A DNA stretch of 20,000 nt, taken from the sequence record SRR31156797_7944. One strand, 5' to 3'. Every line of letters starts with the position of its first letter. Position 1 is the stretch's first letter. A program made the translations under genes and the position numbers. Below, piece by piece: positions 770 through 19,309 of the stretch. The notes under the pieces were generated by a model. It was not told the DNA's origin. It was given only the letters and a program-made list of their open reading frames with translations, and did no database searches.

Positions 770-780
770 TCCGTCTTCTC

Positions 781-2643: not shown

Positions 2644-2656
2644 ACAATCTCCTTTG

Positions 2657-3493: not shown

Positions 3494-3497
3494 GCTT

Positions 3498-4493: not shown

Positions 4494-4507
4494 ATCCCCT
4501 CCCCGTC

Positions 4508-5314: not shown

Positions 5315-5318
5315 TGTA

Positions 5319-6002
5319 TTAATCCTCTGTTTTCTTCTCAATGACGCCCGGGTTCTCACGGAAACGCTTCAGCATCTCTTCCACATGCTCCACAAGGACC
5401 TTTTCTATCTTCATCGTCTTCACCGACGGCCGGTCGTCATCCCGCTTCCCGCCGGTGGTGTCATAGGCCTGGGCGATCCAGTCCACGCACATATCCGGAG
5501 GGATGATACTGGTATCCAGTATAAGGTCGAATTCGGTACTGTTGTTGTAATCGAATCGGAAATCCGACTCCACGAAGGAGCGCCTCACCCGATCATTTTC
5601 CTTTACCATCTTTTTCGCTTCCGGCTCGGACAGGTTCTTGTCCTCCATCAGCCGGTGGATACGGCATGCCTCGGGCGCCTTGATCCGGATATTGATGACG
5701 TCCGAATAGGTATCCAGCAGACCGAAACTGCCCCGTCCGGCGATGACCACGTTGCCATGATGGGCCACCGCCATAATGACCTCGGCCAGGAAGTTGATGG
5801 TCATCTCGCGATACACATCATAACGCTCCCACATGCCGGGCACTTTCTCATAGATATTGTCGAACTTGCTGAACCCGTACTCCTTCATGATCTTGGAGAG
5901 CTGATTCTTGTCCACATAGTCGTAATCAAGCTTTTCGGCAAGCTTCTTTCCCACATAGGTACCCATGCTGCCGAGCTTTCTGGATATTGTAATAACTGCC
6001 AT
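5319..6002 (-). CDS. cytidylate kinase-like family protein (Cytidylate_kin2 type), function unknown
   Basis: VITISRKLGSMGTYVGKKLAEKLDYDYVDK N-terminus, GNVVIAGRGS, IRIKAP..CRIHR, NDRVRRSF, FDLILDTS. RBS AGGGAG. Confidence 0.8.
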   Translation of the reverse strand: MAVITISRKLGSMGTYVGKKLAEKLDYDYVDKNQLSKIMKEYGFSKFDNIYEKVPGMWERYDVYREMTINFLAEVIMAVAHHGNVVIAGRGSFGLLDTYSDVINIRIKAPEACRIHRLMEDKNLSEPEAKKMVKENDRVRRSFVESDFRFDYNNSTEFDLILDTSIIPPDMCVDWIAQAYDTTGGKRDDDRPSVKTMKIEKVLVEHVEEMLKRFRENPGVIEKKTED

Positions 6003-6018
6003 TGAAGACTCCCTGGGC

Positions 6019-6079
6019 TTTCATCCGGGACCGGGCCCCGGGATGAGAGAACATATCCCCCGGCCCAGCGGCCGGGAGA
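6019..6079. other. two tandem GC-rich inverted repeats between the permease and kinase-like genes
   Basis: TTTCATCCGGG...CCCGGGATGAGA (about 6019-6048, imperfect) and CCCGGCC-cagc-GGCCGGG (6059-6076). No U-tract on the minus strand. Confidence 0.5.
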
Positions 6080-6094
6080 AAGATGCGATATACC

Positions 6095-7078
6095 TTATTT
6101 CTTTTTCTGTTTCCGGGCGTCGATCAGAACGGCGATCACGATGATGAATCCCTTCACGATCTGCTGCCAGTAGGCGTTGACGCCCAACAGGTCCATACCG
6201 TTGTTCAGAACGCCGATGATCAGAGCCCCAATGACGCAGAAGGGGATCGAACCGATACCGCCGGAAAGGGAGGTGCCGCCGATTACGGTGGAGGCGATGG
6301 CGTCCAGCTCATAGGACAGGCCGTAGGTGGGGTTACCCGCGGAGGTTCTGGCCGTCAGGATCACAGCGGCCACGGCAGTGAAGAAACCGGCCAGAGCGTA
6401 AACCTTGACCAGGGTCTTCTCCACATTGATACCGCATATCCTGGCGGCCTGCTCGTTGCCGCCGATGGCGAACACGTGGCGGCCGAATCTGGATTTGCTC
6501 AAGAGGATATGGGCGATGATCCCCATGATCAGGTAGATCCAGATGGGGATGGGGATGCCCGCGAAGCTGCCCGTACCGATAAAGGTGAAGCTGTCCTTCA
6601 GGTCGCCCACGGGGCGTCCCTGGGTCACCAGGGCCGCCGCTCCCCTGGCCACGGTCATCATCCCCAGGGTGGCTATGAAGGGAGGGATCTTTCCGAAGGC
6701 ATGGAGGGAACCGTTTATGGCGCCCATCAGAAGACCGAGGATCACAGCCGCGAGCAGACCGAGGGCTATGGGCGCCACGATGCTGAAGGACTGGTCGGGA
6801 TTCACCTTGTTCTGGGACATGGAAGCCACGACGACCGAGATCAGGGCGACCATGGAGCCGGACGACAGGTCGATACCGGTTGTGATGATGGCGAAGGTGA
6901 CGCCAAAGGATATGATACCGATGATGGACACCTGGCGGATAACGTTTGTGATATTCCGGACGGACCGGAAAGCCGGGGATACGACGGACAGTATCAGACA
7001 AAAGGCTACAAAGATGACGACGATACCGTATTTACTCATAAAGGCGCCGAAGCTGGGCCTTCCTAATGCTTTCTGCAT
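6095..7078 (-). CDS. sugar (probably inositol) ABC transporter permease, RbsC/MglC family
   Basis: GIDLSSGS, IPPFIATLGMMTVARG, FGRHVFAIGGNEQAARICGIN, YELDAIASTVIGGTSLSGG; multiple hydrophobic segments. Confidence 0.93.
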   Translation of the reverse strand: MQKALGRPSFGAFMSKYGIVVIFVAFCLILSVVSPAFRSVRNITNVIRQVSIIGIISFGVTFAIITTGIDLSSGSMVALISVVVASMSQNKVNPDQSFSIVAPIALGLLAAVILGLLMGAINGSLHAFGKIPPFIATLGMMTVARGAAALVTQGRPVGDLKDSFTFIGTGSFAGIPIPIWIYLIMGIIAHILLSKSRFGRHVFAIGGNEQAARICGINVEKTLVKVYALAGFFTAVAAVILTARTSAGNPTYGLSYELDAIASTVIGGTSLSGGIGSIPFCVIGALIIGVLNNGMDLLGVNAYWQQIVKGFIIVIAVLIDARKQKKK

Positions 7079-7097
7079 GGTTTCAAAACCTCCTTGA

Positions 7098-8603
7098 TTA
7101 AAGCGATTCGCCTGTGGCGAGGGCCAGGATCTTTTCCTGGGTTGCTTCGTCCCGGCTGAGTTCGCCGGAACACTTCCCTTCGTGCATGACCATGATCCTG
7201 TCGCTTATGGCGAGGATCTCGGGCATCTCAGACGACACCATGATGATGCTCTTGCCCATCTTGGCCAGCTCACCGATGAGACGGTGGATCTCCGACTTGG
7301 CTCCCACGTCGATCCCTCTCGTGGGCTCGTCGAGGATCAGGACCTCCGGGGTCGTCAAGAGCCAGCGGGAGATCAGAACCTTCTGCTGGTTCCCTCCCGA
7401 GAGGTTCTTGATCAGCTGCTCCAGGGTAGGCGTCTTGATGGAGATGGCCTCCCTCTGCTCCTGGCAGTTCTCCCTGATCTTCTTCCTGTCCAGCAGACCG
7501 TTTTTGAGGTAGGTCCCCACATCGGGCATGATGATATTGTCCTTGATGGACAGCTCGGGGAAGATCCCCGTCAGCTTTCTGTCTTCCGTCACAAAGGCGA
7601 TGCCCTGGTTGATGGCGTCGATGGGCTCATGGATCTCGACCTTCTCTCCGTCCATCCGGATCTCTCCCGATTCGGCCGGCTTGTATCCGAATATGGCCTC
7701 CATGACCTCGGTCCGCCCGGCGCCCATCAGTCCGGCCACGCCCAGAACCTCTCCCCTTCTCAGACTGAAGCTGACGTTCTGGAATTTCTTGCCGTTGCAG
7801 AGATCATTGACCTCCAGGACGGTCTCGCCGATGGCGGCCAGCTCTTTATGGAAGAACTCATCCATGGAACGGCCGACCATCATGCTGATCAGCCTGTCCT
7901 TATCGAAGTTTTCGATAAGATCGGAACCGATGTACTCGCCGTCCCGAAGCACCGAGACCTCATCGCAGATAGCGAAGATCTCATCCAGTTTGTGGGAGAT
8001 GTAGATGATGGCGATTTTCTTCTTCTCTTTGAGATCCCTGATAATGTCATAGAGCTTATCGATCTCTTTGTCTGTCAGTGCGGAGGTGGGCTCATCCATT
8101 ATGACCAGGTCCGCGTTATAGGATACAGCCGTGGCGATGGCTACGAGCTGTGCATTTGCAATACTGATATCAGACATCATGACGCTCGGGTCGATGTCTA
8201 TTCCCAGCTCATCAAAGAGCTCTTGGGTCTCTTCAACCATCTTTTTCTGATTGATAAGATTCAAGCCTTTGGTTTTAATTACTTCCTTTCCCAGAAAGAC
8301 ATTACTGGCAACCGTAAGATTGGGAACCGGACTGATTTCCTGGGGGATCATGCTGATTCCGCCGTTGATGGCATCGATGGGGCTTTTAACAGCATAAGGC
8401 TCGCCCTTGAATTTCACCTCACCTTCGTCAGGCTGATAGATGCCGTAAAGGATCTTCATCAGCGTGGACTTCCCCGCTCCGTTTTCACCCATGAGAGCAT
8501 GAACGGTCCCCTTCCTGATCGTCAGGTCTACGCCTTTCAATGCCCTTACGCCTGGAAAGGACTTGGATACCCCTTTTATCTCCAGGACATTTTCCGTACT
8601 CAT
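7098..8603 (-). CDS. sugar ABC transporter ATP-binding protein, RbsA/MglA family (two ABC domains)
   Basis: Walker A GENGAGKST, MDEPTSAL, YISHKLDE, LSGGNQQK, LDEPTRGIDVGAK. Confidence 0.95.
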   Translation of the reverse strand: MSTENVLEIKGVSKSFPGVRALKGVDLTIRKGTVHALMGENGAGKSTLMKILYGIYQPDEGEVKFKGEPYAVKSPIDAINGGISMIPQEISPVPNLTVASNVFLGKEVIKTKGLNLINQKKMVEETQELFDELGIDIDPSVMMSDISIANAQLVAIATAVSYNADLVIMDEPTSALTDKEIDKLYDIIRDLKEKKKIAIIYISHKLDEIFAICDEVSVLRDGEYIGSDLIENFDKDRLISMMVGRSMDEFFHKELAAIGETVLEVNDLCNGKKFQNVSFSLRRGEVLGVAGLMGAGRTEVMEAIFGYKPAESGEIRMDGEKVEIHEPIDAINQGIAFVTEDRKLTGIFPELSIKDNIIMPDVGTYLKNGLLDRKKIRENCQEQREAISIKTPTLEQLIKNLSGGNQQKVLISRWLLTTPEVLILDEPTRGIDVGAKSEIHRLIGELAKMGKSIIMVSSEMPEILAISDRIMVMHEGKCSGELSRDEATQEKILALATGESL

Positions 8604-8638
8604 ATAGACTCCCGCTTAAATAAAAGAACACTTTCCTT

Positions 8639-8666
8639 AAAATGGGGAGAGCCTGAACCCTCCCCA
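8639..8666 (-). terminator. stem-loop after the binding-protein gene (partial terminator or mRNA stabiliser)
   Basis: Minus strand TGGGGAGGGT-TCAG-GCTCTCCCCA followed by TTTT, about 20 nt after the SBP stop codon. Confidence 0.6.
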
Positions 8667-8685
8667 AAATCGATCTAAAAACTGA

Positions 8686-9627
8686 TTACTTGTACTCGCT
8701 CATATTCTCGGGAGTGACGGTTTCGAAGGGGATCCAGTCCCACTTGTCAACGCCGTTCCCCTTAACCAGGTCGTACGCGGCCTTGGCGCCGTTGTAACCC
8801 TGGGCATTCATGTTCTGGAAAACAGTCACGTCCAGCCCCTTTCCGAGGTACTCGAGGGCGTCGGGAGTGGCGTCTACTCCGCCGATAATGAGATCAGCGT
8901 CCGCGATATTGGCGCCCTGGGCGGCCAGAAGGGTTCCGATGGCCATCTCGTCGTTGTTACATACGATGGCGTCCAGATCGGCACCGCTCTGAATCCAGTT
9001 CTCGGCGACCTGCATTCCCTTGGCTCTGTCCCACTTGGCTTCCGCGTCCATAACCACTTCGATATTGTCGTACTTGGCGAAAACCTGCTTGTTTCCTTCG
9101 GTTCTCATACGGGCGGCCTCGTGTCCCAGGGGTCCCATGATGATTCCGACCTTTCCGCCTTCGGGCTGCAGGGCTTCCGCTACCCACTCGGCCTGCAGGA
9201 TTCCGGCCTGGATGGACTCGGAACCTGTGTACACATCAAAGTCGTTGTGGAACTCTTCGGCGGGCATTCTGTTGGCGATGACCAGCTTCACGCCGTCGTC
9301 CTTACACTTCTTGAAGACAGGCTTCAGAGCGGAGATGTCTACGGGAACGATAAGGATGGCGTCCACGCCCTTGACCAGAAGGGTCTCGACCTGATTCAGC
9401 TGAACGGCCGCATCGTCTTTGGCATCGGTCATGATAACCTCTACATCCTCATGCTCGGCATCGAAAGCGCGAACGCCGTCCTGCAGGTAGGTCTGCCCCT
9501 TGTCTGAGAAGCTGCTCATCGCCGCGCCGATCTTTACGCTGCCATCATTCTGCCCCTCTGCAAAAACAGATGCGGGTACGATAAGCATAACCAGTGCGAT
9601 CATAACCAATGCGAATCTTTTACTCAT
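8686..9627 (-). CDS. sugar ABC transporter substrate-binding protein (RbsB-like, probably inositol-binding)
   Basis: Signal peptide MSKRFALVMIALVMLIVPASVFA without a lipobox Cys; DAKDDAAVQLNQVE, AKWDRAKG, CNNDEMAIG, GGVDATPDA, TVFQN. RBS GGAGG. Confidence 0.92.
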   Translation of the reverse strand: MSKRFALVMIALVMLIVPASVFAEGQNDGSVKIGAAMSSFSDKGQTYLQDGVRAFDAEHEDVEVIMTDAKDDAAVQLNQVETLLVKGVDAILIVPVDISALKPVFKKCKDDGVKLVIANRMPAEEFHNDFDVYTGSESIQAGILQAEWVAEALQPEGGKVGIIMGPLGHEAARMRTEGNKQVFAKYDNIEVVMDAEAKWDRAKGMQVAENWIQSGADLDAIVCNNDEMAIGTLLAAQGANIADADLIIGGVDATPDALEYLGKGLDVTVFQNMNAQGYNGAKAAYDLVKGNGVDKWDWIPFETVTPENMSEYK

Positions 9628-9679
9628 AGTTTTCCTCCAATTTTGTTGTCATCTACGGCAGGTTTTCGCCGTAAACAAC

Positions 9680-9722
9680 CAAACGTTTGCTCTATTATTA
9701 AACGAAAAAAACAGGCTGTCAA
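9680..9722 (-). promoter_or_regulatory. sigma70-type promoter of the iol transport/catabolism operon with a LacI-type operator
   Basis: Minus strand TTGACA (9722-9717), 17 bp, AATAAT (9699-9694), followed by the perfect palindrome CAAACGTTTG (9680-9689) over the predicted +1. Confidence 0.75.
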
Positions 9723-9763
9723 ATTAATTCTGAGTGAATCCATCAAATTTCTGCGATCCACCC

Positions 9764-9788
9764 GAAGCCGGCACAGCCGTCCGGCTTC
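9764..9788 (-). terminator. hairpin directly after the IolE-like gene
   Basis: GAAGCCGG-9 nt-CCGGCTTC starting 1 nt after the stop codon; no clear U-tract. Confidence 0.45.
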
Positions 9789-9789
9789 C

Positions 9790-10689
9790 TCAGAGCTGGG
9801 AAATCAGAAAATCCCTACTGGCTTTGATGTCCTTCAGAGCTCCGCCCGCGTCCCTGGGATCCCGCTCCTGCTCCACCGTGACCCATCCCGAATACGCCAG
9901 TTCGTCAAGGGTTTTCAAGACCCCGCCGTAGTCGACACAACCCTTCCCGATGGAACACATCACCCCCTTCCCGCAGGCATCGAAGAATCCCAGGCTGTCG
10001 GCGATAGCCGCTCCGTAGACCTCCGGATTGATATCCTTGAAGTGCACGTAATCCAGCCTTTCCGCATATTTTCTGAGCGATTGCACGGGATCGTCACAGG
10101 CATAATAGAGGTGGCCCGTATCCAGGCAGAGCCCGGCGGCCTCTGGGGAAATATCGTGAACGACCCGCTCTATTTCATCATCAAATTCTATATAACCTCC
10201 CGCATGGGGATGAATTACAGGACGAACGCCAAATTCGACCGAGGCTATTTTCGAGATGATTTTTATATGCTCCATCATCCTTTCCCAATCCCCGGCTTCC
10301 AGACGCGGCGCCGATTCGGGGTGCCCGGCCGTGTTGTTCCTGTCCGCCTTGACCGCATCGATGACGACCAGGTAACAGGGCGCCCCCTTTTCAGCGCTGC
10401 GGGATACGAGGGAACAGATCTTTCTGGTCTTGTCCGCCAGCATGGTCCTGTCCGCCGAGGGGCTCAGGTCATCGTAGATCGTGCCGGCGATCAGCTGCAG
10501 ACGCTTTGCGTGGAGCAGCTCCTTCAGATGCTCCGGTTCGGTGGGGAGGTAGCCGTATGGTCCCAGTTCAATGGCCCGGAATCCGCTCTCCCCCGCCTCA
10601 TCCAGGACGGTCCTCCAGGACGGATTATCGGGATTTCCCGGATCTTCGATCCCCCAGGAACAGGGGGCGACGGCAAAGTTAAAATCCAT
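9790..10689 (-). CDS. iolE: IolE/MocC-like inosose dehydratase (xylose-isomerase-like TIM barrel)
   Basis: APCSWGIE, IELGPYGYLP, HPHAGGYIE, LCLDTGHLYY, VHFKDI, GKGCVDY, WVTVEQE. Only IolE-type gene in the window, with an iol operator upstream. Exact activity within the family is uncertain. Confidence 0.65.
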   Translation of the reverse strand: MDFNFAVAPCSWGIEDPGNPDNPSWRTVLDEAGESGFRAIELGPYGYLPTEPEHLKELLHAKRLQLIAGTIYDDLSPSADRTMLADKTRKICSLVSRSAEKGAPCYLVVIDAVKADRNNTAGHPESAPRLEAGDWERMMEHIKIISKIASVEFGVRPVIHPHAGGYIEFDDEIERVVHDISPEAAGLCLDTGHLYYACDDPVQSLRKYAERLDYVHFKDINPEVYGAAIADSLGFFDACGKGVMCSIGKGCVDYGGVLKTLDELAYSGWVTVEQERDPRDAGGALKDIKASRDFLISQL

Positions 10690-10729: not shown

Positions 10730-10831
10730 CATCAACTTCTAACATAAGGAAAGAGAAGCTTTTCCATTCCCGATAACAGCCCGGAGAACTTGCTTTACAT
10801 ATCTATGAAAAAAATGGAGAATCATATAGTT

Positions 10832-11839
10832 ATGAAGGTGACCATCAAAGACATAGCCCATAAGCTGGATCTCAATTTCTCTTCCGTCTCCAGAGCCCTG
10901 AACAATAAGCCGGGAGTCAGCGAGGAAACCCGGCGGCTGGTGATAGAAACGGCCAGGAAGATGGGCTACCGCCCCAATGTCATAGCCCGGGGACTGGTAA
11001 AGAACGAAACGAAGACCCTGGGCATCCTGATGCCGGATATCGTCAACCCCCTTTTCGGAGAGATTACGACGGCCATAATAGAAACCGCCAACGAACAGGA
11101 TTACGATGTGTTCCTCTGTATCTCCAACTGGAGCAAGCTGAAGGAAACCGACAACATCAACGCCATCCAGCAGAAGCAGGTCGACGGCATCATCATAAAG
11201 TCCGTGAGCGACGACAACACCAAGCTTCTGGAACAGACGAACATCCCCGTCATCGGCTATGAAACCTGGAGCAGGAACCATAACTTCAGTTCCGTCAGCA
11301 CCGACAACGAAAGGGGGGGGTATATCGCCGCCCGGCACCTGATAGACTGCGGTTACGAAAAAACGGCCATCCTCCACGGGCCTCTCAACTCCACCGCCGG
11401 TCTCCACCGGCGAAACGGATTCCTTCGGGCTTACGATGAATGCTCGAAAGCCTTTGACGATTCGCTGCTCTATATAGGCGAATACAATATAAAAAGCGGC
11501 TATCAGATGGCCTGCAGGCTCTTTGAAGAACACAGCCATGTGGATTCCATCTTTGCGGGCAACGATGTCATCGCCCTGGGCGTCCTCCAGTGCCTGGAGG
11601 AGAGGGGGATCAAGGCGGGAAGAGAGTTCGGCCTGATCGGTTTTGACAACATCAGCTTCTCCCACCTTCCCCAGATCCAGCTCACCACGATCAAGCAGCC
11701 CAAGTACAGCATCGGCAAGATCATGACCAAGATGGTCCTGGACGAAATAAAGAGCCGCGGCAAAGGGGAGAAGGTCCCCCCCCAGCGCATCCTCCTTCAG
11801 CCCGAACTCATCGTCCGGGAAACAACAGCCAAAAGATAA
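10832..11839 (+). CDS. LacI-family transcriptional regulator, probable inositol regulon repressor
   Basis: MKVTIKDIAHKLDLNFSSVSRALNNKPGVSEETR HTH, hinge YRPNVIARGL, NDVIALG, GFDNI, LTTIKQP. Start set at ATG 10832. Confidence 0.93.
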   Translation: MKVTIKDIAHKLDLNFSSVSRALNNKPGVSEETRRLVIETARKMGYRPNVIARGLVKNETKTLGILMPDIVNPLFGEITTAIIETANEQDYDVFLCISNWSKLKETDNINAIQQKQVDGIIIKSVSDDNTKLLEQTNIPVIGYETWSRNHNFSSVSTDNERGGYIAARHLIDCGYEKTAILHGPLNSTAGLHRRNGFLRAYDECSKAFDDSLLYIGEYNIKSGYQMACRLFEEHSHVDSIFAGNDVIALGVLQCLEERGIKAGREFGLIGFDNISFSHLPQIQLTTIKQPKYSIGKIMTKMVLDEIKSRGKGEKVPPQRILLQPELIVRETTAKR

Positions 11840-11900: not shown

Positions 11901-12866
11901 TTAGAGATTCGCCTCTGCAACAGACGCCAAGTGGGGTGCGGTCAGTCCATTCTTATCTATGATAAAGGCATGATCGCCCAGAGGCTGGAATTTATCCCCC
12001 AGACTGACAATGATCTGTCTGGGTGTGTTCTCGCATCCGGCCTTGTACTCCGCGACGGCGGCGCCCAGGCCTCCGACGGAGCTGTGCTCCTCAACCGTCA
12101 GGATCAGACGGTTTTCCGCAAAGACCGAATCCAGGATATCCGTATCCAGGGGCTTGACCGTATGCATGTCGATCACCCTGGCGGAGATCCCTTTCCCATT
12201 GAGAAGATCCGCCGCTCCCACGGCCTCGGCCAGCATGGAACCGCTCGAGATAATGGCCACGTCCTTTCCGGGACGATACTCGACGGCCCTGCCGATCTGA
12301 AAATCGAAGTCTTCGGAATAGAGAACCGGATACCCCGGTCCGCCGGTCAGCCGGATATACACCGGCCCCTGATGCTCAGCCGCGGCGTACAGGGCCTTGT
12401 AGAGCTGCAGGGGATCGGAGGGGGCCATAACCGTGAAGTTGGGGATGGCCCGGGCCACCGCCATATCGTCCATGGCGTAATGGGTGTTTCCCAGAGGTCC
12501 GAAGCGTACCCCCGCTTCGATGCTGACCACCTTGGCGTTCAGATTCATATATCCCATATTGACCCTCATCTGCTCGGCGCAGCGCATGGGCACGATGGCG
12601 GCCAGGCCCACCGCAAAGGGCAGGACCCCTTCCGCCGCCAGGCCCGCCGAAAAGTTGATCAGGTTCTGTTCGGCGATTCCCACATCAAAGAATCTGTCGG
12701 GATAGCTGTCCCGGAAGGCCGTCAGACGGGCCGTGGGGGTCAGGTCTGCCGTTACGGTGCACATCTCGGGATAGTCTTCGGCCATCATAACCAGGGTGTC
12801 CCCCATAACCGTTCGATGTCCGGCCTTGGACCATTCCCGAAGTTTATCTAAAGGCAATTTGCTCAT
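11901..12866 (-). CDS. split transketolase, C-terminal (pyrimidine-binding) subunit
   Basis: TADL, YPDRFFDVGIAEQN, RCAEQMR, GNTHYAMDD, GPVYIRL, DMHTVKPLD, VEEHSSVGGLG. Start reset to ATG 12866 (MSKLPLD), RBS GAGGAG. Confidence 0.92.
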   Translation of the reverse strand: MSKLPLDKLREWSKAGHRTVMGDTLVMMAEDYPEMCTVTADLTPTARLTAFRDSYPDRFFDVGIAEQNLINFSAGLAAEGVLPFAVGLAAIVPMRCAEQMRVNMGYMNLNAKVVSIEAGVRFGPLGNTHYAMDDMAVARAIPNFTVMAPSDPLQLYKALYAAAEHQGPVYIRLTGGPGYPVLYSEDFDFQIGRAVEYRPGKDVAIISSGSMLAEAVGAADLLNGKGISARVIDMHTVKPLDTDILDSVFAENRLILTVEEHSSVGGLGAAVAEYKAGCENTPRQIIVSLGDKFQPLGDHAFIIDKNGLTAPHLASVAEANL

Positions 12867-12909
12867 GGTATATCTCCTCTCTCGCTCAGGGCTTTGCTCA
12901 AGCCGCTTC

Positions 12910-13743
12910 TTATTTTTCCAGATCCGAAACGGCCTGCTTGTAGTGTTCCTCGTCCATGGGCCTGGCATGCCAGCTGAGGCTGCCCTCCATAAAGGAAACG
13001 CCCTTGCCCTTGACGGTATCGGCAATGATGACGTGGGGCTTGCCGCTTTGGGAGTCTCTCATCTTCTCCAGGGCGGCGATCACGGTCTCCAGGTCATTCC
13101 CTTCTTCGATGACCATGACCTCCCAGCCCACGGCCTTCCAGAGGGAGACGAGGTCCACATCCATGATGTCGCTGGTCTTGCCGGCCAGCTGAACGCCGTT
13201 CCGGTCGACGATGGCCACAAGGTTGTCCAGTTTGTTCTTGGCGGCGTTCATGGCCCCTTCCCAGACGCTGCCCTCATTGCACTCGCCGTCTCCCATCAGG
13301 CAGTACACCCTGTGATCCTTCTTCTGAATCTTGGCGGCCTTGGCCATGCCGCAGGCCACGGGGAATCCGTTGCCCAGGCTTCCGGAGGAGACCTCTATCC
13401 CGTATTTCTGATTCCGGCTGGGGTGGCCCGACAGGAAGCTGTTGTCACCCTTGAAGCTGTACATCTGCTCCCGCGTGATGTAACCGGTCTCGACCAGGGC
13501 GGCATAGTAGCAGAGGCAGGCATGGCCCTTGCTCTGAACGAAGCGGTCCCTGCGGGGCATCACCGGATCCTTCGGATCATGATTCATGATCCTGAAGAAA
13601 AGGCCGGCCACGATCTCGATGCTGGACATGGCGGGTCCGAAATGCGCCCCCCTTCCGCCGGCGGCGTAGCCCATCTCAATAACATCGCGCCGCATCTCCA
13701 GCGCCTTCTGCTCGATCATGTCGATCGTATAGTTCTCCTGCAT
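12910..13743 (-). CDS. split transketolase, N-terminal (ThDP-binding) subunit
   Basis: GAHFGPAMS, RDRFVQSKGHA, LSGHP, SSGSLGNG, GDGECNEGSVWEG...DRN, TVKGKGVSFME...WH. Confidence 0.93.
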   Translation of the reverse strand: MQENYTIDMIEQKALEMRRDVIEMGYAAGGRGAHFGPAMSSIEIVAGLFFRIMNHDPKDPVMPRRDRFVQSKGHACLCYYAALVETGYITREQMYSFKGDNSFLSGHPSRNQKYGIEVSSGSLGNGFPVACGMAKAAKIQKKDHRVYCLMGDGECNEGSVWEGAMNAAKNKLDNLVAIVDRNGVQLAGKTSDIMDVDLVSLWKAVGWEVMVIEEGNDLETVIAALEKMRDSQSGKPHVIIADTVKGKGVSFMEGSLSWHARPMDEEHYKQAVSDLEK

Positions 13744-13750
13744 ATCCTTC

Positions 13751-14638
13751 CTACTCCTTATTAATCGTATAAAGATGGCCGCTGTACTGCCCGCCGGGAA
13801 CGGCAGCCGCTTCGTACCTCGCCAGATCTATCATCTTCTGAACATCCAGGTTCAGCTCATAACCCATCTCTTCCAGCATGTAGGCCAGATCCTCGGTGGC
13901 CAGGTTTCCCGATGCTCCGGGAGCAAAGGGACAGCCCCCCAGCCCGCCCAGGGTGGACTGTACCTTACAGACGCCCTTCTCAATGGCCGCCAGGGTATTG
14001 ACCATGCCCATGCCCCTTGTGTCGTGGACATGAACCATCAGCTCCAGATCCGGATAGGCGTCGCCGACGGCATCTATGGTCTGCCTGACCTGGGACGGGT
14101 TGGCCATGCCCACCGTGTCGCAGAGATTGACGGTCCTGATCCCGCACTCCGCATAGGGCTTTAGAAAGGGGATCACATCGCGGGCGTGCTTCATGCCTTC
14201 AAAGGGACAGCCGAAGGCGGTGGCCAGATCCAGGCAGACAGCCATCCCGGGATAGGCCTCCCGTATCTTCCGCAGCTCCTCAAGGGACTCCTCATGGCTC
14301 CGCCTGATATTGGCCCGGTTATGGCTCAGGCTGAGGGAGACCACATAGGAGATCGACCCGATCCCCGCCTCCCGGGCGTTCTGAGCGCCCCTGAGATTGG
14401 GGACCAGGGCAAACAGATCGGCGTCCGGATAGCGCCTCACGCATGTCTCGGCCAGTTCCCGGGCGTCCCTCATCTGGGGGATCGCCTTGGGGCTGACGAA
14501 GGAGGTGATCTGCACATGCTCCATACCGGCATCCATCAGTCCGTCGATGATCCTCAGCTTCGTATCCAGGGGAATATACTCTTTCACATTCTGGAACCCG
14601 TCCCGGGGTCCGACCTCATAGATCTCTATCTTTTTCAT
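13751..14638 (-). CDS. hydroxymethylglutaryl-CoA lyase family protein (DRE-TIM metallolyase)
   Basis: EVGPRDGFQN, TSFVSPKAIPQMRDA, AFGCPFEG, HVHDTRGMG, GGLGGCPFAPGASGNLATED. Start overlaps the upstream stop (ATGA). Confidence 0.92.
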   Translation of the reverse strand: MKKIEIYEVGPRDGFQNVKEYIPLDTKLRIIDGLMDAGMEHVQITSFVSPKAIPQMRDARELAETCVRRYPDADLFALVPNLRGAQNAREAGIGSISYVVSLSLSHNRANIRRSHEESLEELRKIREAYPGMAVCLDLATAFGCPFEGMKHARDVIPFLKPYAECGIRTVNLCDTVGMANPSQVRQTIDAVGDAYPDLELMVHVHDTRGMGMVNTLAAIEKGVCKVQSTLGGLGGCPFAPGASGNLATEDLAYMLEEMGYELNLDVQKMIDLARYEAAAVPGGQYSGHLYTINKE

Positions 14639-16101
14639 GTGTCACTCTCCAGCATGGTCCCCTCTTCCCTGAGTCGTCTGTACCAGTCGAAGGCCGGGAC
14701 GGGAAGCTGGGGATGATGTCCTCCGCACTGTGACCTGGCCTTTTCCAGATAGCTCCGCAGCTGCTTTTTATAGCTTTCGGAGGCACAGTTTTCGATGATC
14801 GCCTCGGCGCGCTCCAGCTCATCCAGGCCCCTAAGATCGGCCACGCCGTTTTCGGTGACTGCCACATCGATATCGTGTTCCGAGATATCCACGTGGGAGA
14901 CCATGGGGACGATCCCCGAGATGGCCCCGCCCTTGGCGGAGGATGGGAGAAGCATGACCGAAAGCCCCGCGTTATGGGCGAAGCCCGCGCCTCCGCCAAT
15001 GCCGTTGACTACCCGGCTGCCCCCTATATGGCTGGCGTTCACATTCCCGTAGATGTCCATCTCGATACCCGAGTTCAGGGCGATCACGCCCAGACGGCCG
15101 ACGACCTCGGGGCTGTTGGTGATATCCCCATTGCGAATGACTATCTTCCTCCGAAGTTCCGCGCCGCTTTCAAGGATCTCCACCGCCCGGTCGCTCATCC
15201 CGATGCCGCCGGTGGATACGGCGGCCGCCCTGCCCGAGGCCAGAAGCTCCAGGACCGGCTCTGTCACTCCCCCGCAGAAGAACTGCAGATCTCCGAAACC
15301 GGAACGGGCGAAGCCGTCGGCCAGAGAGTCGGCCAGGGCCCCGAATCCGAGCTGCACGGGAGGAAGGGCGGCCCCTCTGCCGTACTCCTTCTCCAGAAAA
15401 CCGAAGAGCCGGGAGGCTATGCTGTCCGTAAGCTCCGTGCCCCTGGGCCGGGCCCCCATCCTTTCGGGGAGGGAGGTTTCCACGATACAGCGGATCTTCC
15501 CCGCATCAACGGGAACCGAGCCGCCCCCTATCCTCTGATCCGTTTTGACCAGGGGGATGGGCTGTGTATGGGGAGGGTCAGCGGGCACATGGATATCATG
15601 GAGTTCCCTCAGAAGCTCGGGCTGGGCGGAGTTGATCTCGACGATGACCTCTTTCGCCGCATCCAGCAGGTAGTGGACCATACCGACCGAGCTCGTAGGG
15701 ATCAGCCGTCCCTGGTCGTCGAAGCCCAGGGCCTCCACAACCGCCACATCTATCTCGCCGAAGCTTCCGTTCTTCAGAAGGCGGGGCATCTTGCACATCT
15801 GCTGCTCCACATAGCGCAGCTCCCCCCTGTTGGCCTGAGCCGACAGGGTTCTGCCGGCCACCATGGGAGCCCGCCGGGCCACGATCCCCTCCGTTCCCAG
15901 CAGCTCATCCAGCCAGGGGACATTCGCCCCTGTCAGCAGATTCAGAGAGAGGCTCTCGCCCGCCTGCTTCCGCTTAACCAGTTCTCCCGGAACGGCCTTG
16001 GGGTAGCCCGCCATGGCCCATCCGCTCATGGCGACGGTCATGCCGTCCCTGATAAGATAGGCAGCCTCGGAGGCGGAAACCTTCAGCTTATTCATATCCA
16101 T
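14635..16101 (-). CDS. acetyl-CoA hydrolase / succinate CoA-transferase family protein (Cat1/AarC/ScpC-like), catalytic Glu apparently replaced
   Basis: SGWAMAGYPKAVP, IDVAVVEA, IPTSSVG, VIVEIN, HDIH, SPEVVGRLGVIALN, EMDIYGNVNASH, NGIGG, IVPMVSHVD, VTENGVADLRGL, GGHHP. Start reset to ATG 16101 (16095 also possible), just after the ALDH stop. Confidence 0.88.
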   Translation of the reverse strand: MDMNKLKVSASEAAYLIRDGMTVAMSGWAMAGYPKAVPGELVKRKQAGESLSLNLLTGANVPWLDELLGTEGIVARRAPMVAGRTLSAQANRGELRYVEQQMCKMPRLLKNGSFGEIDVAVVEALGFDDQGRLIPTSSVGMVHYLLDAAKEVIVEINSAQPELLRELHDIHVPADPPHTQPIPLVKTDQRIGGGSVPVDAGKIRCIVETSLPERMGARPRGTELTDSIASRLFGFLEKEYGRGAALPPVQLGFGALADSLADGFARSGFGDLQFFCGGVTEPVLELLASGRAAAVSTGGIGMSDRAVEILESGAELRRKIVIRNGDITNSPEVVGRLGVIALNSGIEMDIYGNVNASHIGGSRVVNGIGGGAGFAHNAGLSVMLLPSSAKGGAISGIVPMVSHVDISEHDIDVAVTENGVADLRGLDELERAEAIIENCASESYKKQLRSYLEKARSQCGGHHPQLPVPAFDWYRRLREEGTMLESDT

Positions 16102-16118
16102 GAACTTAAAAACTCCCT

Positions 16119-17531
16119 TCAGCCCTTGGGGGTGAAACCGGCGAAGAGCTCTTCGTCCGAGGGCTGGCGGCTGGGGATCTCGCGGATGACCCAGGTATTG
16201 TTCATATAGTGTTTCAGTTCGATATTCTCGGAGGCGATATTGCCGCCCCATGTTCCGCATCCCAGGGAGCTGGTAAAGGGCATACCGCTCGTCCAGCTTC
16301 CCGTGTTGGTAGCGCCCTGGGCCTGATTGACCACGACCCTGGTGGTATAGGTTCCCAGGGCGTACTTGTCGACGTTTCCGGGGGTTCCGGAGTAGATGCC
16401 GATGGAATGGCCGGCGCCGGAGTAGGCGTGGTTCTCGTTGGCGATGCGGATGACCTCATCGATGCCATCGCTCTTGTAAACGGTGGATACGAGGCTCATC
16501 TTCTCGCCGGCGAAGGGCGTGGCCTCCCCGGTCTTGTCCTCTTCCACCAGAAGGAAGCTGGTTCCCTCGGGGATCTTTATCCCGGCTATCCTCGCGATGT
16601 TCTCCACAGGAGAGGCGACGATGTCACGGTTGAGAACATGGTCAGCGGGCCAGTTGGGCCAGATCGCCTTCTGCACCCTTGCCTTCTCATCGGCATCCAG
16701 CATATGGGCGCCCACCTTCGCCAGTTCGGCCAGGGCGTCGCCGTAGACGCCCTTGTCTATGATGATGCTGTTATCGCAGGAACAGCCCGCGGCGGTGTCG
16801 AAGGTCTTGCTGGCCTTGATCTTGACGGCCGCGTCTGCCAGATCGGCGGTCTTGTCGATGTGGATCATCGAATTGCCCGCTCCCACGCCGTAGGCGGGGG
16901 TTCCGGAGCTGTAGGCGGCCTTGACCATGGGAGATCCTCCGGTGGCCATCACCAGATCGCACTGGGCCATGAGTTCGTTGGTCAGGGGGATGGAAGGCTC
17001 CTCAATGGGGATGAACAGATCCTCGGGGGCCCCGTACTTCCTCATAACGTCCCGGATCAGGTTGACCGTCTTCGCACAGGTGTTCTTGCCACGGGGATGG
17101 GGGGAATAGATGATGGCGTCCCGGGCCTTTACGGCGAAGATGGCCTGGATAAGGGGATGCATCTCGGACTGGGTGCTGGGCACCAGAGAGCCGATGACGC
17201 CGACGGGCTTCGATATGCGAACCAGCCCTCTCTCGGGTATCTCCTCGCAGATCCCCACGGTCTTCACGTCCTTCACATCAAAGAGTACGCCCCGGCACTT
17301 GGCGGCGACCTTTATAAACTTGGAGGGAACGTCTCCCAGACGGCATTCATCGTAGGAGAACTCCGCCAGTTCCTGTACCAGCTCGTCATTGGCGACGATC
17401 TCCCAGACAATGGCGTAGGCCAGCTCGTCCACCCTCTCCTGGCTGAAGCCCTCCGCTATCTTCTGAGCCCTGCGAGCCCTGCCCATCAATTCGGTAATAT
17501 ATGCTGCTGCCTTCTGCGGATCTTTCATCAT
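16119..17531 (-). CDS. CoA-acylating aldehyde dehydrogenase (AdhE-N/SucD/SauS-like)
   Basis: SQERVDEL, KPVGVIGSLVPST, SPHPRG, ATGGSPMVKAAYSSGTPAYGVGAGN, SKTFDTAAGCSCDN (catalytic Cys), FAGEKMS, GAGHS, LGCGTWGGN. Three tandem ATGs; GGAGG spacing favours 17531 or 17528. Confidence 0.92.
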   Translation of the reverse strand: MMKDPQKAAAYITELMGRARRAQKIAEGFSQERVDELAYAIVWEIVANDELVQELAEFSYDECRLGDVPSKFIKVAAKCRGVLFDVKDVKTVGICEEIPERGLVRISKPVGVIGSLVPSTQSEMHPLIQAIFAVKARDAIIYSPHPRGKNTCAKTVNLIRDVMRKYGAPEDLFIPIEEPSIPLTNELMAQCDLVMATGGSPMVKAAYSSGTPAYGVGAGNSMIHIDKTADLADAAVKIKASKTFDTAAGCSCDNSIIIDKGVYGDALAELAKVGAHMLDADEKARVQKAIWPNWPADHVLNRDIVASPVENIARIAGIKIPEGTSFLLVEEDKTGEATPFAGEKMSLVSTVYKSDGIDEVIRIANENHAYSGAGHSIGIYSGTPGNVDKYALGTYTTRVVVNQAQGATNTGSWTSGMPFTSSLGCGTWGGNIASENIELKHYMNNTWVIREIPSRQPSDEELFAGFTPKG

Positions 17532-17550
17532 CATGTCCTCCGGAACTTAT

Positions 17551-17568
17551 AAAGCATACGTTTGCTTT
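17551..17568. promoter_or_regulatory. near-perfect 18-bp palindrome, LacI-type operator matching the iol operators
   Basis: AAAGCATACGTTTGCTTT has one mismatched pair with its reverse complement and lies between the predicted promoter and the RBS of the ALDH gene. Confidence 0.7.
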
Positions 17569-17581
17569 TCGATAGAAACAT

Positions 17582-17656
17582 ACTATACCCTTTCTATCGC
17601 AACTGTAAAGTTTCGTTTGGGTTTCGTTTGAAATTTATTTTATTCTGATCTAAGAT
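17582..17656. promoter_or_regulatory. back-to-back promoters of the ALDH operon and the DeoR gene
   Basis: Minus strand: TTTACA (17609-17604), 16 bp, TATAGT (17587-17582). Plus strand: TTGAAA (17628-17633), 17 bp, TAAGAT (17651-17656). Confidence 0.55.
17610..17630 (+). repeat. direct repeat GTTTCGTTTG x2 with 11-bp period; candidate DeoR site
   Basis: Exact 10-mers at 17610-17619 and 17621-17630, between the two -35 elements. Confidence 0.6.
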
Positions 17657-17696
17657 AAGCATGCCTATAGCAAAATTGATAACGAAAGGAAAAAAG

Positions 17697-18461
17697 ATGT
17701 CCGACAGTCCTATTGAGATAACAAGGAAACTCCTGATTCAGAACGGCAAGGTGTATGTCAACGACCTGAGCCGCCGTTTCGGCGTCAGCAAGGTTTCGGC
17801 AAGGAAGTATCTGGCCAGACTGGAGGACGAAGGGATAGCCCAGAGGTTCTACGGAGGGGCGTCCCTGCTGAAGAAGGAGAAGCCCGATCAGGGGGACGGC
17901 GGTTTCTATTCGGATCCCCTCCTCCTGTCCCTGGCGCGGACGGCCCGCGGGCAGATCGAGGACGGGGACTCCCTCTTCATCGGCTCGGGAAGGAGCTGCT
18001 GCGTTCTGGCCAGGGAGCTGAAGGGCATCAAAAACCTGACGGTGGTCACAAACAACATAACGGCCCTGACCGATCTGAACAGAAACGCCACCCGGGTCTT
18101 CCTGATCGGCGGCGAGCTGACGACCACGGACAACAGCACCCTCTTCTCAAGCTGGGAGTCACACCAGCTTATGCCGGAGAACATCTTCGTCAACAAGGCC
18201 TTCACAAGCACATCCGGACTGGACCTGAAGGCGGGGATCACCGTGGACTCGATCATCAGCACCTATATCTTCAAGCACATCCCTGAGATGGCCCAGCAGT
18301 GGTATCTGATGGCCGATTCGGGCAAGTACGACAAGATTTCCATCTATTCGGTCGCAGATTTCGACAGCATTGACGTCCTGATCTCCGACCAGGTCCCTCA
18401 GAATTACAGGGAACACTGCCGCAAGCATGAGGTCAGGATCATCTCCCCCTCCCGGCTCTGA
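17697..18461 (+). CDS. DeoR/GlpR-family transcriptional regulator
   Basis: HTH VNDLSRRFGVSKVSARKYLARLEDEGIAQRFYGGA; sensor domain IEDGDSLFIGSGRS, TVVTNN, LIGGEL, MADSGKY. Start ATG 17697 with AAAGGA upstream. Confidence 0.92.
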   Translation: MSDSPIEITRKLLIQNGKVYVNDLSRRFGVSKVSARKYLARLEDEGIAQRFYGGASLLKKEKPDQGDGGFYSDPLLLSLARTARGQIEDGDSLFIGSGRSCCVLARELKGIKNLTVVTNNITALTDLNRNATRVFLIGGELTTTDNSTLFSSWESHQLMPENIFVNKAFTSTSGLDLKAGITVDSIISTYIFKHIPEMAQQWYLMADSGKYDKISIYSVADFDSIDVLISDQVPQNYREHCRKHEVRIISPSRL

Positions 18462-18559: not shown

Positions 18560-19309
18560 CTAGAGGAAGTCCTGTCCCCCGTTGACCTGTATGATCTCGC
18601 CCGTCAGGAAGGACGCTTCATCGCTCACCAGAAATCGTATCACCTTGGCGACCTCTTCGGGCCGGCCCAGCCTCTTCATCAGGATATTGTCCTTCCAGGA
18701 GGCGAAGACCTCGGGCCTGGTCTTTCTGATGCCGTCGTGAAAGGGGGTGTCGATGGTACCCGGAGACACCCCGTTAACCCTGATGCCGTACTCGGCCAGA
18801 TCCTTGGCCAGGGCCCGGGTCAGGGTGGTGACGGCGGCCTTGGAGCTTCCGTAGATACCGGCGCCCGGACCTCCGGCGTTCCAGGCGGCGTTGGAGCTGT
18901 AGGTGATGATGGAGGGGTCATCCGACTTCTTCAGAAGGGGGATGGCCGACCGCGAGTGAAAGAAGACGCTGTCCAGGTTCAGGGCCATCACCTTTCTGTA
19001 GAAGGAGGTCTCCATATCCTCGAAGCGGCTCCTTCCGCCAAGGCCTCCGGCGTTGTTCACCAGAACGTCCAGCTTTTCGTATCGGACGCTGATCTTCTCG
19101 AAGGCGGCCAGAACGGCCTCTTCGTCGCATACATCATAGACATAAAGCTCCGCCTTGATGCCCATGCCCTCCAGCTCGGCCAACGCGTCTTCTCCCTGGG
19201 CCCGGTCGATTCCGTTCAGGATAATATCATATCCCCCTTCTCCCAGGGTTCTGGCCACGGCTCTGCCGATGCCGCCGGTGCCTCCGGTGATCATTGCGTA
19301 TCTACTCAT
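18560..19309 (-). CDS. SDR oxidoreductase resembling 4-deoxy-L-erythro-5-hexoseulose uronate (DEH) reductases
   Basis: TGGTGGIG, NNAGGLGGR, GGPGAGIYGSSK (YxxxK), VSPGTIDTPFH, TGEIIQVNGGQ, which match motifs I recall from Sphingomonas A1-R-type DEH reductases; directly downstream of kdgF. Confidence 0.8.
   Translation of the reverse strand: MSRYAMITGGTGGIGRAVARTLGEGGYDIILNGIDRAQGEDALAELEGMGIKAELYVYDVCDEEAVLAAFEKISVRYEKLDVLVNNAGGLGGRSRFEDMETSFYRKVMALNLDSVFFHSRSAIPLLKKSDDPSIITYSSNAAWNAGGPGAGIYGSSKAAVTTLTRALAKDLAEYGIRVNGVSPGTIDTPFHDGIRKTRPEVFASWKDNILMKRLGRPEEVAKVIRFLVSDEASFLTGEIIQVNGGQDFL

Follow-up and report, generated by a model that had tools for sequence, protein, structure and literature searches.

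A conserved five-gene cassette encoding a split transketolase and associated with inositol catabolism clusters

Introduction

Inositols are plentiful as a carbon source in soil, sediment, plants and the gut, and the standard account of how bacteria break them down has long been treated as essentially complete. In this classical myo-inositol pathway (IolG, E, D, B, C, J and A), the IolB product 2-deoxy-5-keto-D-gluconate (DKG) is phosphorylated by IolC and cleaved by the IolJ aldolase, and the malonate semialdehyde (MSA) produced is oxidatively decarboxylated by IolA. Here we describe a cassette of five genes, encoding a coenzyme A (CoA)-acylating aldehyde dehydrogenase (ALDH), a CoA-transferase, a lyase of the 3-hydroxy-3-methylglutaryl-CoA (HMG-CoA) lyase family and the two subunits of a split transketolase (TK), which lies beside an inositol (iol) cluster in a 20,000 nt stretch of DNA from sequence record SRR31156797_7944 (hereafter 'the window'; G+C content approximately 50-64%).

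The sulfo-transketolase (sulfo-TK) pathway of sulfoglycolysis (SqwGH, with a SqwD/SqwKL variant) may serve as an analogy for such a gene set. In the passages of PMC12890257 that deal with it, a split TK cleaves a ketose with an acid-ended, rather than a phosphate-ended, tail, and in one variant the acidic aldehyde released is oxidised by a CoA-acylating sulfoacetaldehyde dehydrogenase of the SauS family; both this pathway and the cassette occur in anaerobic Spirochaetes. However, the cassette combines four activities for which no published pathway was found in the full-text literature, a search with most subscription journals outside its scope, and each of its proteins scores too low to pass a curated equivalog model of a characterised enzyme. 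Neither 'D-malyl-CoA' nor 'R-malyl-CoA' occurred among the matches listed in the literature search. The original view, formed from the DNA alone, that no described pathway combines the four activities is thereby supported. We conclude with considerable confidence that the five genes constitute one conserved, horizontally mobile catabolic module of inositol (cyclitol) breakdown; the chemistry that it performs can be proposed only tentatively.

Organisation and conservation of the cassette

Genes were called from a listing of open reading frames (ORFs) together with Pfam and NCBIfam scans of the window. The cassette and its divergent regulator are composed as follows:

16119..17534, minus strand: CoA-acylating aldehyde dehydrogenase of the SauS/SucD/EutE type, the first cassette gene (PF00171; ribosome binding site (RBS) GGAGGA)
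14635..16101, minus strand: class I CoA-transferase of the acetyl-CoA hydrolase/transferase family (PF02550 and PF13336)
13751..14638, minus strand: HMG-CoA-lyase-family (DRE-TIM) acyl-CoA lyase (PF00682, 141 bits)
12910..13743, minus strand: split transketolase N-terminal subunit (TK-N), comprising the thiamine diphosphate (ThDP)/PP domain (PF00456, 164 bits)
11901..12866, minus strand: split transketolase Pyr and C-terminal subunit (TK-C), with a remodelled substrate pocket (PF02779 and PF02780)
17661..18461, plus strand: DeoR-family regulator, divergent from the cassette (PF08220 and PF00455)

With the starts chosen here, the five co-oriented genes are separated by gaps of 17, -4, 7 and 43 nt, the stop codon of the CoA-transferase overlapping the start of the lyase (ATGA), and a purine-rich, RBS-like stretch lies upstream of each start. 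Those of the CoA-transferase and TK-C are internal ATG codons; the longest ORFs (16260 and 13025, respectively) would overlap the upstream genes, and the internal start of TK-C was selected because its orthologues begin there. The scans detected no transporter, kinase or isomerase inside the cassette. In all these respects, and in the proximity of an inositol cluster, the ORF listing and domain scans agree with the original description of the locus.

The arrangement is conserved far beyond chance. When the lyase was used as the query in a scan of one genome per species and the best 12 genome loci were inspected, the same five genes were found in the same order at five of them (L001-L005; L and G numbers denote loci and genomes throughout). 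The carriers are an Oceanispirochaeta metagenome-assembled genome (MAG), with proteins 82-96% identical to those of the window, three Actinomycetota/Acidimicrobiia MAGs and a Gemmatimonadales MAG (69-76%). Across the Spirochaetota, Actinomycetota and Gemmatimonadota genomes and the metagenome contigs, the overall identity of the cassette proteins is 59-96%, with each of the five being around 70-75% identical between the three phyla; in the closest genome record, G004, the proteins are 76-96% identical over the shared stretch. Among metagenome loci, all 13 at which the lyase identity is at least 65% (L081-L093) retain the cassette neighbours over the full extent of the available contig, and none of the 39 with a lyase identity of 61% or less has the full cassette. 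Of 401 sampled genomes belonging to the closest relative's class, 11 encode a cassette TK-C at an identity of at least 71%, and all eight of these whose neighbourhoods were retrieved show the full cassette. The regulators are also retained: a DeoR orthologue (62-87% identical) is in the same divergent position in the eight spirochaete loci with enough flank, and a LacI orthologue (60-78% identical) occupies the same position in G004, G158, G174, G005, G292, G371 and L084. Hence the gene neighbourhoods, which had been put forward as a check on the prediction, keep the five genes together across phyla.

Association with inositol catabolism

Each of the 14 cassette genomes has IolB-family matches, usually on the contig that carries the cassette, and in every one the cassette is adjacent to, or no more than about 15 kb from, iolB/D/E/G. 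Within the one class that was sampled (401 genomes), the cassette is present in 10 of the 87 IolD-positive genomes compared to one of the 314 that are IolD-negative, although these genomes are related rather than phylogenetically independent, such that counts of this kind, and the p-values derived from them, are only indicative. The layout found in spirochaetes, with the DeoR gene followed by ALDH, CoA-transferase, lyase, TK-N and TK-C genes, then the LacI gene and iolE with the substrate-binding protein (SBP) and ABC transporter genes, is shared by G004, G158, G174, G005, G292 and L084, and in part by G371. In L093, the LacI gene, the cassette, the SBP and ABC genes, iolG, iolE and iolD are all on one strand, whilst the cassette of G046 is situated between iolD/iolB/iolG and iolE/iolB/iolD. 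The Actinomycetota and Gemmatimonadota genomes encode a canonical IolB (262-276 bits), the cassette being separated from IolD, IolG-like and IolE-like genes by 3-15 kb.

The corresponding part of the window contains the following features:

10790..11839, plus strand: LacI-family regulator, between the cassette and iolE (PF00356 and PF00532)
2..10689, minus strand: linked iol cluster (Pfam and NCBIfam scans), made up of the genes below
2..769: iolG, partial
781..2643: iolD
2657..3550: iolJ-type class II aldolase
3498..4493: iolC
4508..5359: iolB/KduI-family gene
5319..6002, minus strand: cytidylate-kinase-like gene (PF13189), between iolB and the ABC permease gene
6095..9627: ABC permease, ATPase and SBP genes
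9790..10689: iolE-like gene, listed as divergent within the minus-strand cluster

The Pfam and NCBIfam scans found no iolA in the window. The cytidylate-kinase-like gene is kept at 79-96% identity in L001 and L084. On the other side of the cassette, just past the DeoR gene, is a short-chain dehydrogenase gene (18560..19309, minus strand), a position occupied by a TRAP transporter in the closest relative (L170). Immediately upstream of the Gemmatimonadales cassette, and co-oriented with it, are genes for an SMP-30/gluconolactonase-like protein and an FGGY kinase (L005:3338-5857). The pair, of which the kinase is xylulokinase-like but below the cut-off, is a hint that here a ketose lacking phosphate might have to be phosphorylated.

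The control region and a shared operator

The intergenic region upstream of the cassette was analysed through a consensus scan and an alignment of the window sequence (17535-17660) with the same region in L001, L084, L174 and L177-L181. Two features were defined:

17535..17660, unstranded: divergent control region between the DeoR gene and the cassette (consensus scan and alignment of spirochaete intergenic regions)
9677..9692, unstranded: second copy of the operator palindrome, of the GCAAACGTTTGC type, between iolE and the ABC substrate-binding gene

The consensus scan revealed a promoter-like TTTACA-16-TATAGT sequence for the cassette on the minus strand (17609..17582), with a pair of CGAAAC direct repeats abutting the -35 box on its upstream side and a palindrome, AGCAAACGTATGCTT, in the cassette leader (17552-17566). 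The string CGAAAC-N5-CG(A/T)AAC-TTTACAG is present in all nine aligned spirochaete regions, and a leader palindrome of the GCAAACGT(A/T)TGC type in eight of them. A search of the whole window for the palindrome pattern returned six matches (three sites, each on both strands) against 0.17 expected; furthermore, most spirochaete loci have the palindrome, allowing for one mismatch, ahead of the cassette, iolE and/or the SBP gene, when around 0.04 occurrences are expected per 20 kb. Since it is common to the cassette leader and the iolE/SBP promoters, the cassette and the iol transporter genes are very probably members of one regulon, as far as can be judged from these motifs. The LacI-family protein is the candidate binder of the palindrome, with the DeoR-family protein perhaps binding the CGAAAC repeats. 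The suggestion that the operon draws its substrate from a neighbouring pathway is now backed both by this shared motif and by the co-localisation with iol genes in all 14 genomes.

The third site in the window is a GCAAACGTTT-type palindrome within the iolJ coding region (3232-3247), a possible internal operator or roadblock site. A 9 bp inverted repeat (CGATAGAAA and TTTCTATCG) around the -10 box was seen in the window only, and a terminator scan of the window found nothing above the expectation from shuffled sequence.

The dehydrogenase, CoA-transferase and lyase

The top NCBIfam match of the ALDH is to the acylating sulfoacetaldehyde dehydrogenase SauS (NF047625), at 457.9 bits relative to a cut-off of 600, whilst its closest relative of solved structure is the Clostridium kluyveri-type acetylating succinate-semialdehyde dehydrogenase 8cei (285 bits). 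Orthologues in the cassette loci are 70-93% identical, and no match to the SauS model exceeded the cut-off in any of the 401 genomes of the closest relative's class. The CoA-transferase retains the PF02550 and PF13336 domain architecture of ScpC, AarC and YgfH, scoring 465.2 bits against the ScpC succinyl-CoA:acetate CoA-transferase model (NF053853, cut-off 500) and 465.4 bits against the YgfH subfamily (TIGR03458, cut-off 658.7); its closest solved relatives are 2g39 and the AarC succinyl-CoA:acetate CoA-transferase (4eu3 family). Both proteins therefore appear, by similarity, to be most like enzymes handling C4-dicarboxylate semialdehydes and CoA esters (SucD and ScpC/AarC).

The lyase matches PRK05692 over its full length, with a score of 274.6 bits exceeding the cut-off of 246. 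An alignment with solved HMG-CoA lyases shows no substitution of the catalytic Arg, Asp, His-x-His, Cys or Asn in any of the 26 cassette lyases, all of which have Gln at the position of Glu72 in the human enzyme (E72). A Pfam scan found no leucine-catabolic carboxylase or hydratase genes in the window. A quick maximum likelihood phylogeny generated with IQ-TREE places the cassette lyases in one clade (SH-aLRT support of 98), which lies within a wider group of lyases encoded after family III CoA-transferases. The nearest non-cassette lyases, which are 61-63% identical, are themselves encoded in CoA-transferase operons; these are of a dicarboxylate type and include genes for a transporter (TRAP, citrate-type or MFS) as well as aconitase-like and PrpF genes. 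Several relatives adjoin glycerate-route or D-2-hydroxyacid dehydrogenase genes, which fits the release of a small 2-oxo or hydroxy acid.

Some of these related operons are distinctive in their own right. A metagenome operon (L105:7870-14072) consists of a GntR regulator, an acylating ALDH (45% identical), an HMG-CoA-lyase-family enzyme (49%), a gene of the 3-hydroxyisobutyrate/tartronate-semialdehyde reductase family, an iron-type alcohol dehydrogenase (Fe-ADH) and a glycerate kinase, with a DUF4147/MOFRL glycerate kinase opposite; the ALDH here directly precedes the lyase, without a transferase or TK, and the operon appears to feed a glycerate route. In three Firmicutes loci (L007:4810-9879, L006:7793-10832 and L011:7779-12721), relatives of the lyase are found after family III CoA-transferases, accompanied by PrpR/sigma-54-type regulators. 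In one of the three, the large and small subunits of an aconitase-like enzyme are encoded alongside PrpF; another contains a tandem pair of lyases; and one has a canonical split TK and a D-2-hydroxyacid dehydrogenase. These look like uncharacterised organic acid pathways.

The split transketolase pocket

TK-C was aligned with human TK (4kxu numbering) and the Carboxydothermus split TK, and then with ten cassette orthologues and four other split TKs. Relative to 6yak and human TK, TK-N keeps the catalytic His residues (motifs aHfg, skgHa, sgHp and swHa) and the GDGE...NEG metal/ThDP motif; the roles of these His motifs, and of the pocket residues below, are what we take them to be from the transketolase literature. 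In 11 of 11 cassette TKs, His416 is replaced by Glu117, Ser420 by Arg121, Glu423 by Pro124, Asp424 by Leu125, Arg474 by Gly or Ala (Gly in the window protein) and Ser345 by Thr45. Those residues that are kept comprise Arg318 (Arg18), the cofactor Glu and His129; the last, followed by Tyr or Phe, corresponds to Gln428 of human TK, which is His in bacterial TKs. Hence only the first Arg of the classical phosphate-binding Arg/Ser/His/Arg set is unchanged, the Ser being Thr in all 11 proteins.

In classical TKs, Asp424 reads the hydroxyl next to the aldehyde carbon, and engineered variants at this Asp accept non-hydroxylated aldehydes. As read from the alignment, the cassette pocket is one from which two of the four phosphate ligands and the hydroxyl-reading Asp are gone, and in which a new cationic Arg has been gained; such a pocket does not fit the classical keto-sugar-phosphate reaction. 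Three non-cassette split TKs encoded beside the related Firmicutes lyases keep the His, Asp and Arg in the same alignment, and the split TK of L091 is a variant with Tyr and Thr plus lysines at pocket positions. A further locus (L188:4505-10441, G266) encodes two more split TK pairs with other non-canonical pocket residues, approximately 13 kb from an iol operon, with a Zn-dependent alcohol dehydrogenase between the pairs and another SauS-like ALDH after them.

A proposed branch from the IolB product

The chemistry that we favour, with a likelihood somewhat short of even, is a transketolase-dependent, kinase-free branch leading from DKG to acetyl-CoA and glyoxylate, switched on together with the iol genes. 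By our own derivation, DKG is a D-threo ketose like xylulose 5-phosphate, with -CH2-COO- replacing -CH2-OPO3. The split TK would take the C1-C2 ketol unit off DKG to leave (R)-malate semialdehyde (3-hydroxy-4-oxobutanoate), which the SauS/SucD-like dehydrogenase would oxidise to the malate 1-thioester, with the CoA on the carboxyl next to the hydroxyl. The succinyl-CoA-transferase-like enzyme could then shift the CoA to the other carboxyl, forming 3-hydroxy-3-carboxypropanoyl-CoA (malyl-CoA), from which the HMG-CoA-lyase-type enzyme would release acetyl-CoA and glyoxylate. The substrate, the order of the steps, the products and the ketol acceptor are all as we infer them. The sequence of TK, ALDH, transferase and lyase is that originally predicted in generic form, here made specific to DKG, malate semialdehyde and malyl-CoA; that order is kept in the model favoured here, whilst the TK pocket is a misfit for a classical keto-sugar phosphate.

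In favour of this scheme, it is the sole linear one found to need all four activities on substrates near those of their nearest relatives. It gives the transferase a role, because an ALDH acting on a 2-hydroxy aldehyde would attach the CoA to one carboxyl when a 3-hydroxyacyl-CoA lyase needs it on the other. It would also explain G001, G003 and G046, which carry iolG/E/D/B and the cassette with no IolC above the cut-off and no IolJ detected using the window query. Three other schemes were dropped as chemically poor: CoA activation of DKG or 5-deoxyglucuronate followed by the lyase, which leads to glyoxal-type products; the lyase working in the condensing direction on MSA; and routes through 3-hydroxyglutaryl-CoA, for which there is no C7 or C5 source.

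Several observations weigh against the DKG branch. The hydroxyl-reading Asp is Leu in all 11 cassette TKs, yet malate semialdehyde has that hydroxyl, and the usual ketol acceptor, glyceraldehyde 3-phosphate, needs the phosphate site, of which two of the four residues are lost. IolC is also encoded by 10 of 11 spirochaete cassette genomes and the window-type IolJ by eight of the 14 cassette genomes, and where both are present the branch would be redundant. SauS-like ALDHs that are 49% related to that of the cassette (55-58% when compared with the G292 copy) close LacI-iolB-D-E-G operons, and G292 has one between a transaldolase-like gene and an MmdA-like carboxyltransferase gene; MSA is the likely substrate of these sister enzymes. 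Finally, malate synthase A or G was not found, nor was glyoxylate carboligase above the cut-off, in any of the five cassette genomes searched. Dihydroxyacetone kinase (Dak1) is encoded in four of five cassette genomes, away from the cassette, and is uninformative.

Alternative explanations

A possible, if doubtful, alternative to the DKG branch is that the cassette handles MSA, the IolJ product, in organisms lacking IolA. The ALDH would generate malonyl-CoA, the transferase would hand the CoA to acetate or another acid, and the TK would accept MSA itself, a short, acidic and non-hydroxylated aldehyde; the exchange of Asp for Leu and the new Arg in the pocket fit such a 2-deoxy acidic substrate. 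A closed version can be drawn in which the TK joins hydroxypyruvate and MSA into a C5 keto acid, the CoA ester of which would be split by the lyase into acetyl-CoA and a C3 oxo-aldehyde, with the latter returned to hydroxypyruvate via the ALDH and transferase, giving the net reaction of IolA. MmsA/IolA exceeds the cut-off in just two of the 14 cassette genomes (G001 and G002, in both cases far from the cluster), and is thus lacking in 12; by contrast IolC does so in 11 of 14 (the others being G001, G003 and G046), and the window-type IolJ is found in eight. SauS is also the best model for the ALDH, and its substrate, sulfoacetaldehyde, is isosteric with MSA. At least 14 genomes without the cassette encode a related SauS-like ALDH no more than about 13 kb from IolD, as the last gene of an iolB-D-E-G operon in four of them, and the carboxyltransferase gene next to that of G292 is malonyl/methylmalonyl-CoA decarboxylase-like. 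However, the absence of IolA is not specific to the cassette, being observed in 55 of 77 cassette-free and nine of 10 cassette-bearing IolD-positive genomes (Fisher p = 0.28), so that complementary distribution does not identify the cassette as an IolA replacement. Furthermore, an MmsA-like gene (438 bits) is directly beside iolD and the cassette cluster in G046, and neither IolC nor IolJ was found in G001 and G003. Processing of MSA would in addition give the lyase and TK no chemically economical role, and the closed version requires a 2-oxoaldehyde and a 2-oxoacyl-CoA merely to replace one ordinary enzyme.

The inositol operons of the spirochaetes provide related examples of their own. A common form is LacI-iolB-iolD-iolE-iolG, followed by a SauS-like acylating ALDH gene, without iolA and with iolC and iolJ outside the operon (L187:9567-16944, L189:11781-19015, L190:6017-13496 and L191:4438-12337, in G266, G242, G164 and G231); three of these four operons are followed by a gene for a YdcZ-type DMT exporter. 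This suggests that in this class MSA is oxidised to malonyl-CoA rather than being decarboxylated by IolA. A transaldolase-like gene adjoins iolD/iolB in L186:2366-6489 (G292) and L173:1272-2330 (G046), and the second iol cluster of G292 is preceded by a transaldolase-like gene, a SauS-like ALDH (527 bits) and an MmdA-like carboxyltransferase (719 bits). There may be a transaldolase variant of inositol catabolism, running from DKG through MSA and malonyl-CoA to acetyl-CoA.

It is unlikely, but compatible with part of the data, that the cassette-linked iol cluster breaks down a cyclitol other than myo-inositol, such as a C-methyl or otherwise modified inositol. Ring opening would then yield a keto acid with a tertiary or altered carbinol, the TK would release an aldehyde of the citramalate-semialdehyde type, and the lyase would be an (R)-citramalyl-CoA lyase forming pyruvate and acetyl-CoA. 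That the HMG-CoA-lyase family includes (R)-citramalyl-CoA lyase is our assumption. A statement placing the enzyme in this family was not found in PMC6689899 or PMC12290011. Two copies of IolD are present in seven of the 10 IolD-positive genomes with the cassette, compared to four of the 77 without it, and each iol cluster has its own ABC transporter. A canonical IolE (407 bits, in the second iol cluster of G004) and IolG (486 bits) are encoded by the other, non-cassette cluster; the cassette-linked IolE-like protein, by comparison, reaches 164 bits with TIGR04379, which has a cut-off of 290. The closest non-cassette lyases, one of them in an operon with aconitase-like and PrpF genes, suggest citramalate-type substrates; pyruvate would need no extra enzymes, fitting the absence of those consuming glyoxylate; and the Leu that replaces Asp in the TK, being hydrophobic, could lie against a methyl group. 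Nevertheless, no particular substrate is supported, the genome counts are not phylogenetically independent, and the cassettes of Actinomycetota and Gemmatimonadota are found with a canonical IolB.

Distinctly unlikely, in our estimation, is a phosphate-free variant of the DKG branch, in which the TK would move the ketol unit of DKG onto glyoxylate, itself made by the lyase of the module. The 3-oxo-tetronate so formed, being a beta-keto acid, would lose carbon dioxide to give dihydroxyacetone, whilst malate semialdehyde would pass via the ALDH, transferase and lyase to acetyl-CoA and fresh glyoxylate. Glyoxylate would in this way be a catalytic carrier, and DKG would be converted to acetyl-CoA, dihydroxyacetone and carbon dioxide with neither sugar phosphate nor ATP. 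Such a cycle would explain the loss of the phosphate site and the Asp, the gain of the Arg, the need for four enzymes and the lack of glyoxylate-consuming enzymes in the five genomes searched.

It is highly improbable that the cassette is a variant of the sulfoquinovose sulfo-TK pathway, with the split TK as SqwGH and the acylating ALDH as SqwD: although both components have counterparts here and the SqwD variant is reported from Spirochaetes in the relevant passages of PMC12890257, the ALDH falls below the SauS cut-off (458 vs 600), there is no sulfoquinovose isomerase, SqwI-type isomerase, isethionate reductase or exporter, or ADP-forming ligase in the window or the flanks of related loci, the lyase and transferase would have no role, and both the linkage and the operator are shared with iol genes instead. 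Hardly credible at all is an accidental adjacency of unrelated housekeeping genes (a pentose phosphate TK, a leucine pathway HMG-CoA lyase and a fermentation ALDH and transferase); every family does have housekeeping members and the lyase passes the cut-off of the generic HMG-CoA lyase subfamily, but the gene order is conserved over three phyla with similar identity for all five proteins, the genes are joined by short gaps and a start/stop overlap, the TK pocket rules out classical sugar phosphates, and leucine-catabolic genes are not found nearby.

Comparison with known systems

What is new at this locus is a five-gene module conserved across phyla and wired into iol clusters, without an equivalog of characterised enzymes. 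Were the DKG branch to be correct, it would represent a transketolase-type branch of inositol catabolism, parallel to the division between sulfo-TK and sulfo-TAL routes in sulfoglycolysis; it would also provide a natural transketolase for carboxylated, non-phosphorylated substrates, of interest for biocatalysis, and a new substrate for the HMG-CoA lyase family. Every intermediate proposed can be made enzymatically from inositol.

Individual enzymes of the module resemble those of several characterised systems. The lyase resembles the HMGL-like DRE-TIM lyases, HMG-CoA lyase and (R)-citramalyl-CoA lyase, in its full-length match above the PRK05692 cut-off and in its catalytic residues, but differs in the Gln at the E72 position, in having no leucine-catabolic context and in forming a clade among the lyases paired with family III CoA-transferases. 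In the Clostridium kluyveri SucD/Cat1 system and in AarC/ScpC, the best solved relatives of the ALDH and transferase handle succinate semialdehyde, succinyl-CoA and succinate; however, the cassette proteins score under the equivalog cut-offs, and those systems have no TK, lyase or iol context. The mesaconyl-CoA C1-C4 CoA-transferase (Mct) of the 3-hydroxypropionate bi-cycle, as outlined in parts of PMC9813914, sets a precedent for moving CoA between the carboxyls of a C4/C5 dicarboxylate, which prepares it for an enzyme of a lyase pathway. Mct is nonetheless a family III transferase, whereas the cassette enzyme is of class I, and would have to achieve the shift intramolecularly or by self-exchange.

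At the level of the pathway, sulfo-TK sulfoglycolysis shares the split TK and the acylating ALDH, but the window and the flanks of related loci have neither the sulfoquinovose and sulfoerythrose isomerases nor the exporter and ADP-forming ligase, and the cassette adds a class I CoA-transferase, an HMG-CoA-lyase-type enzyme, and a linkage and operator in common with iol genes. Split TKs also occur in the apiose pathway (AptAB), for which apiose/apulose kinase and isomerase genes would be expected as neighbours; the Pfam scan found neither a kinase nor an isomerase gene in the cassette. The classical myo-inositol pathway, with its phosphorylation, aldol cleavage and oxidative decarboxylation, contains none of the four cassette activities. 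Yet the cassette is physically, and apparently regulatorily, located within iol clusters, its proposed substrate is the product of IolB, and the outcome would be similar in net terms: acetyl-CoA, together with the entry of carbon into central sugar metabolism.

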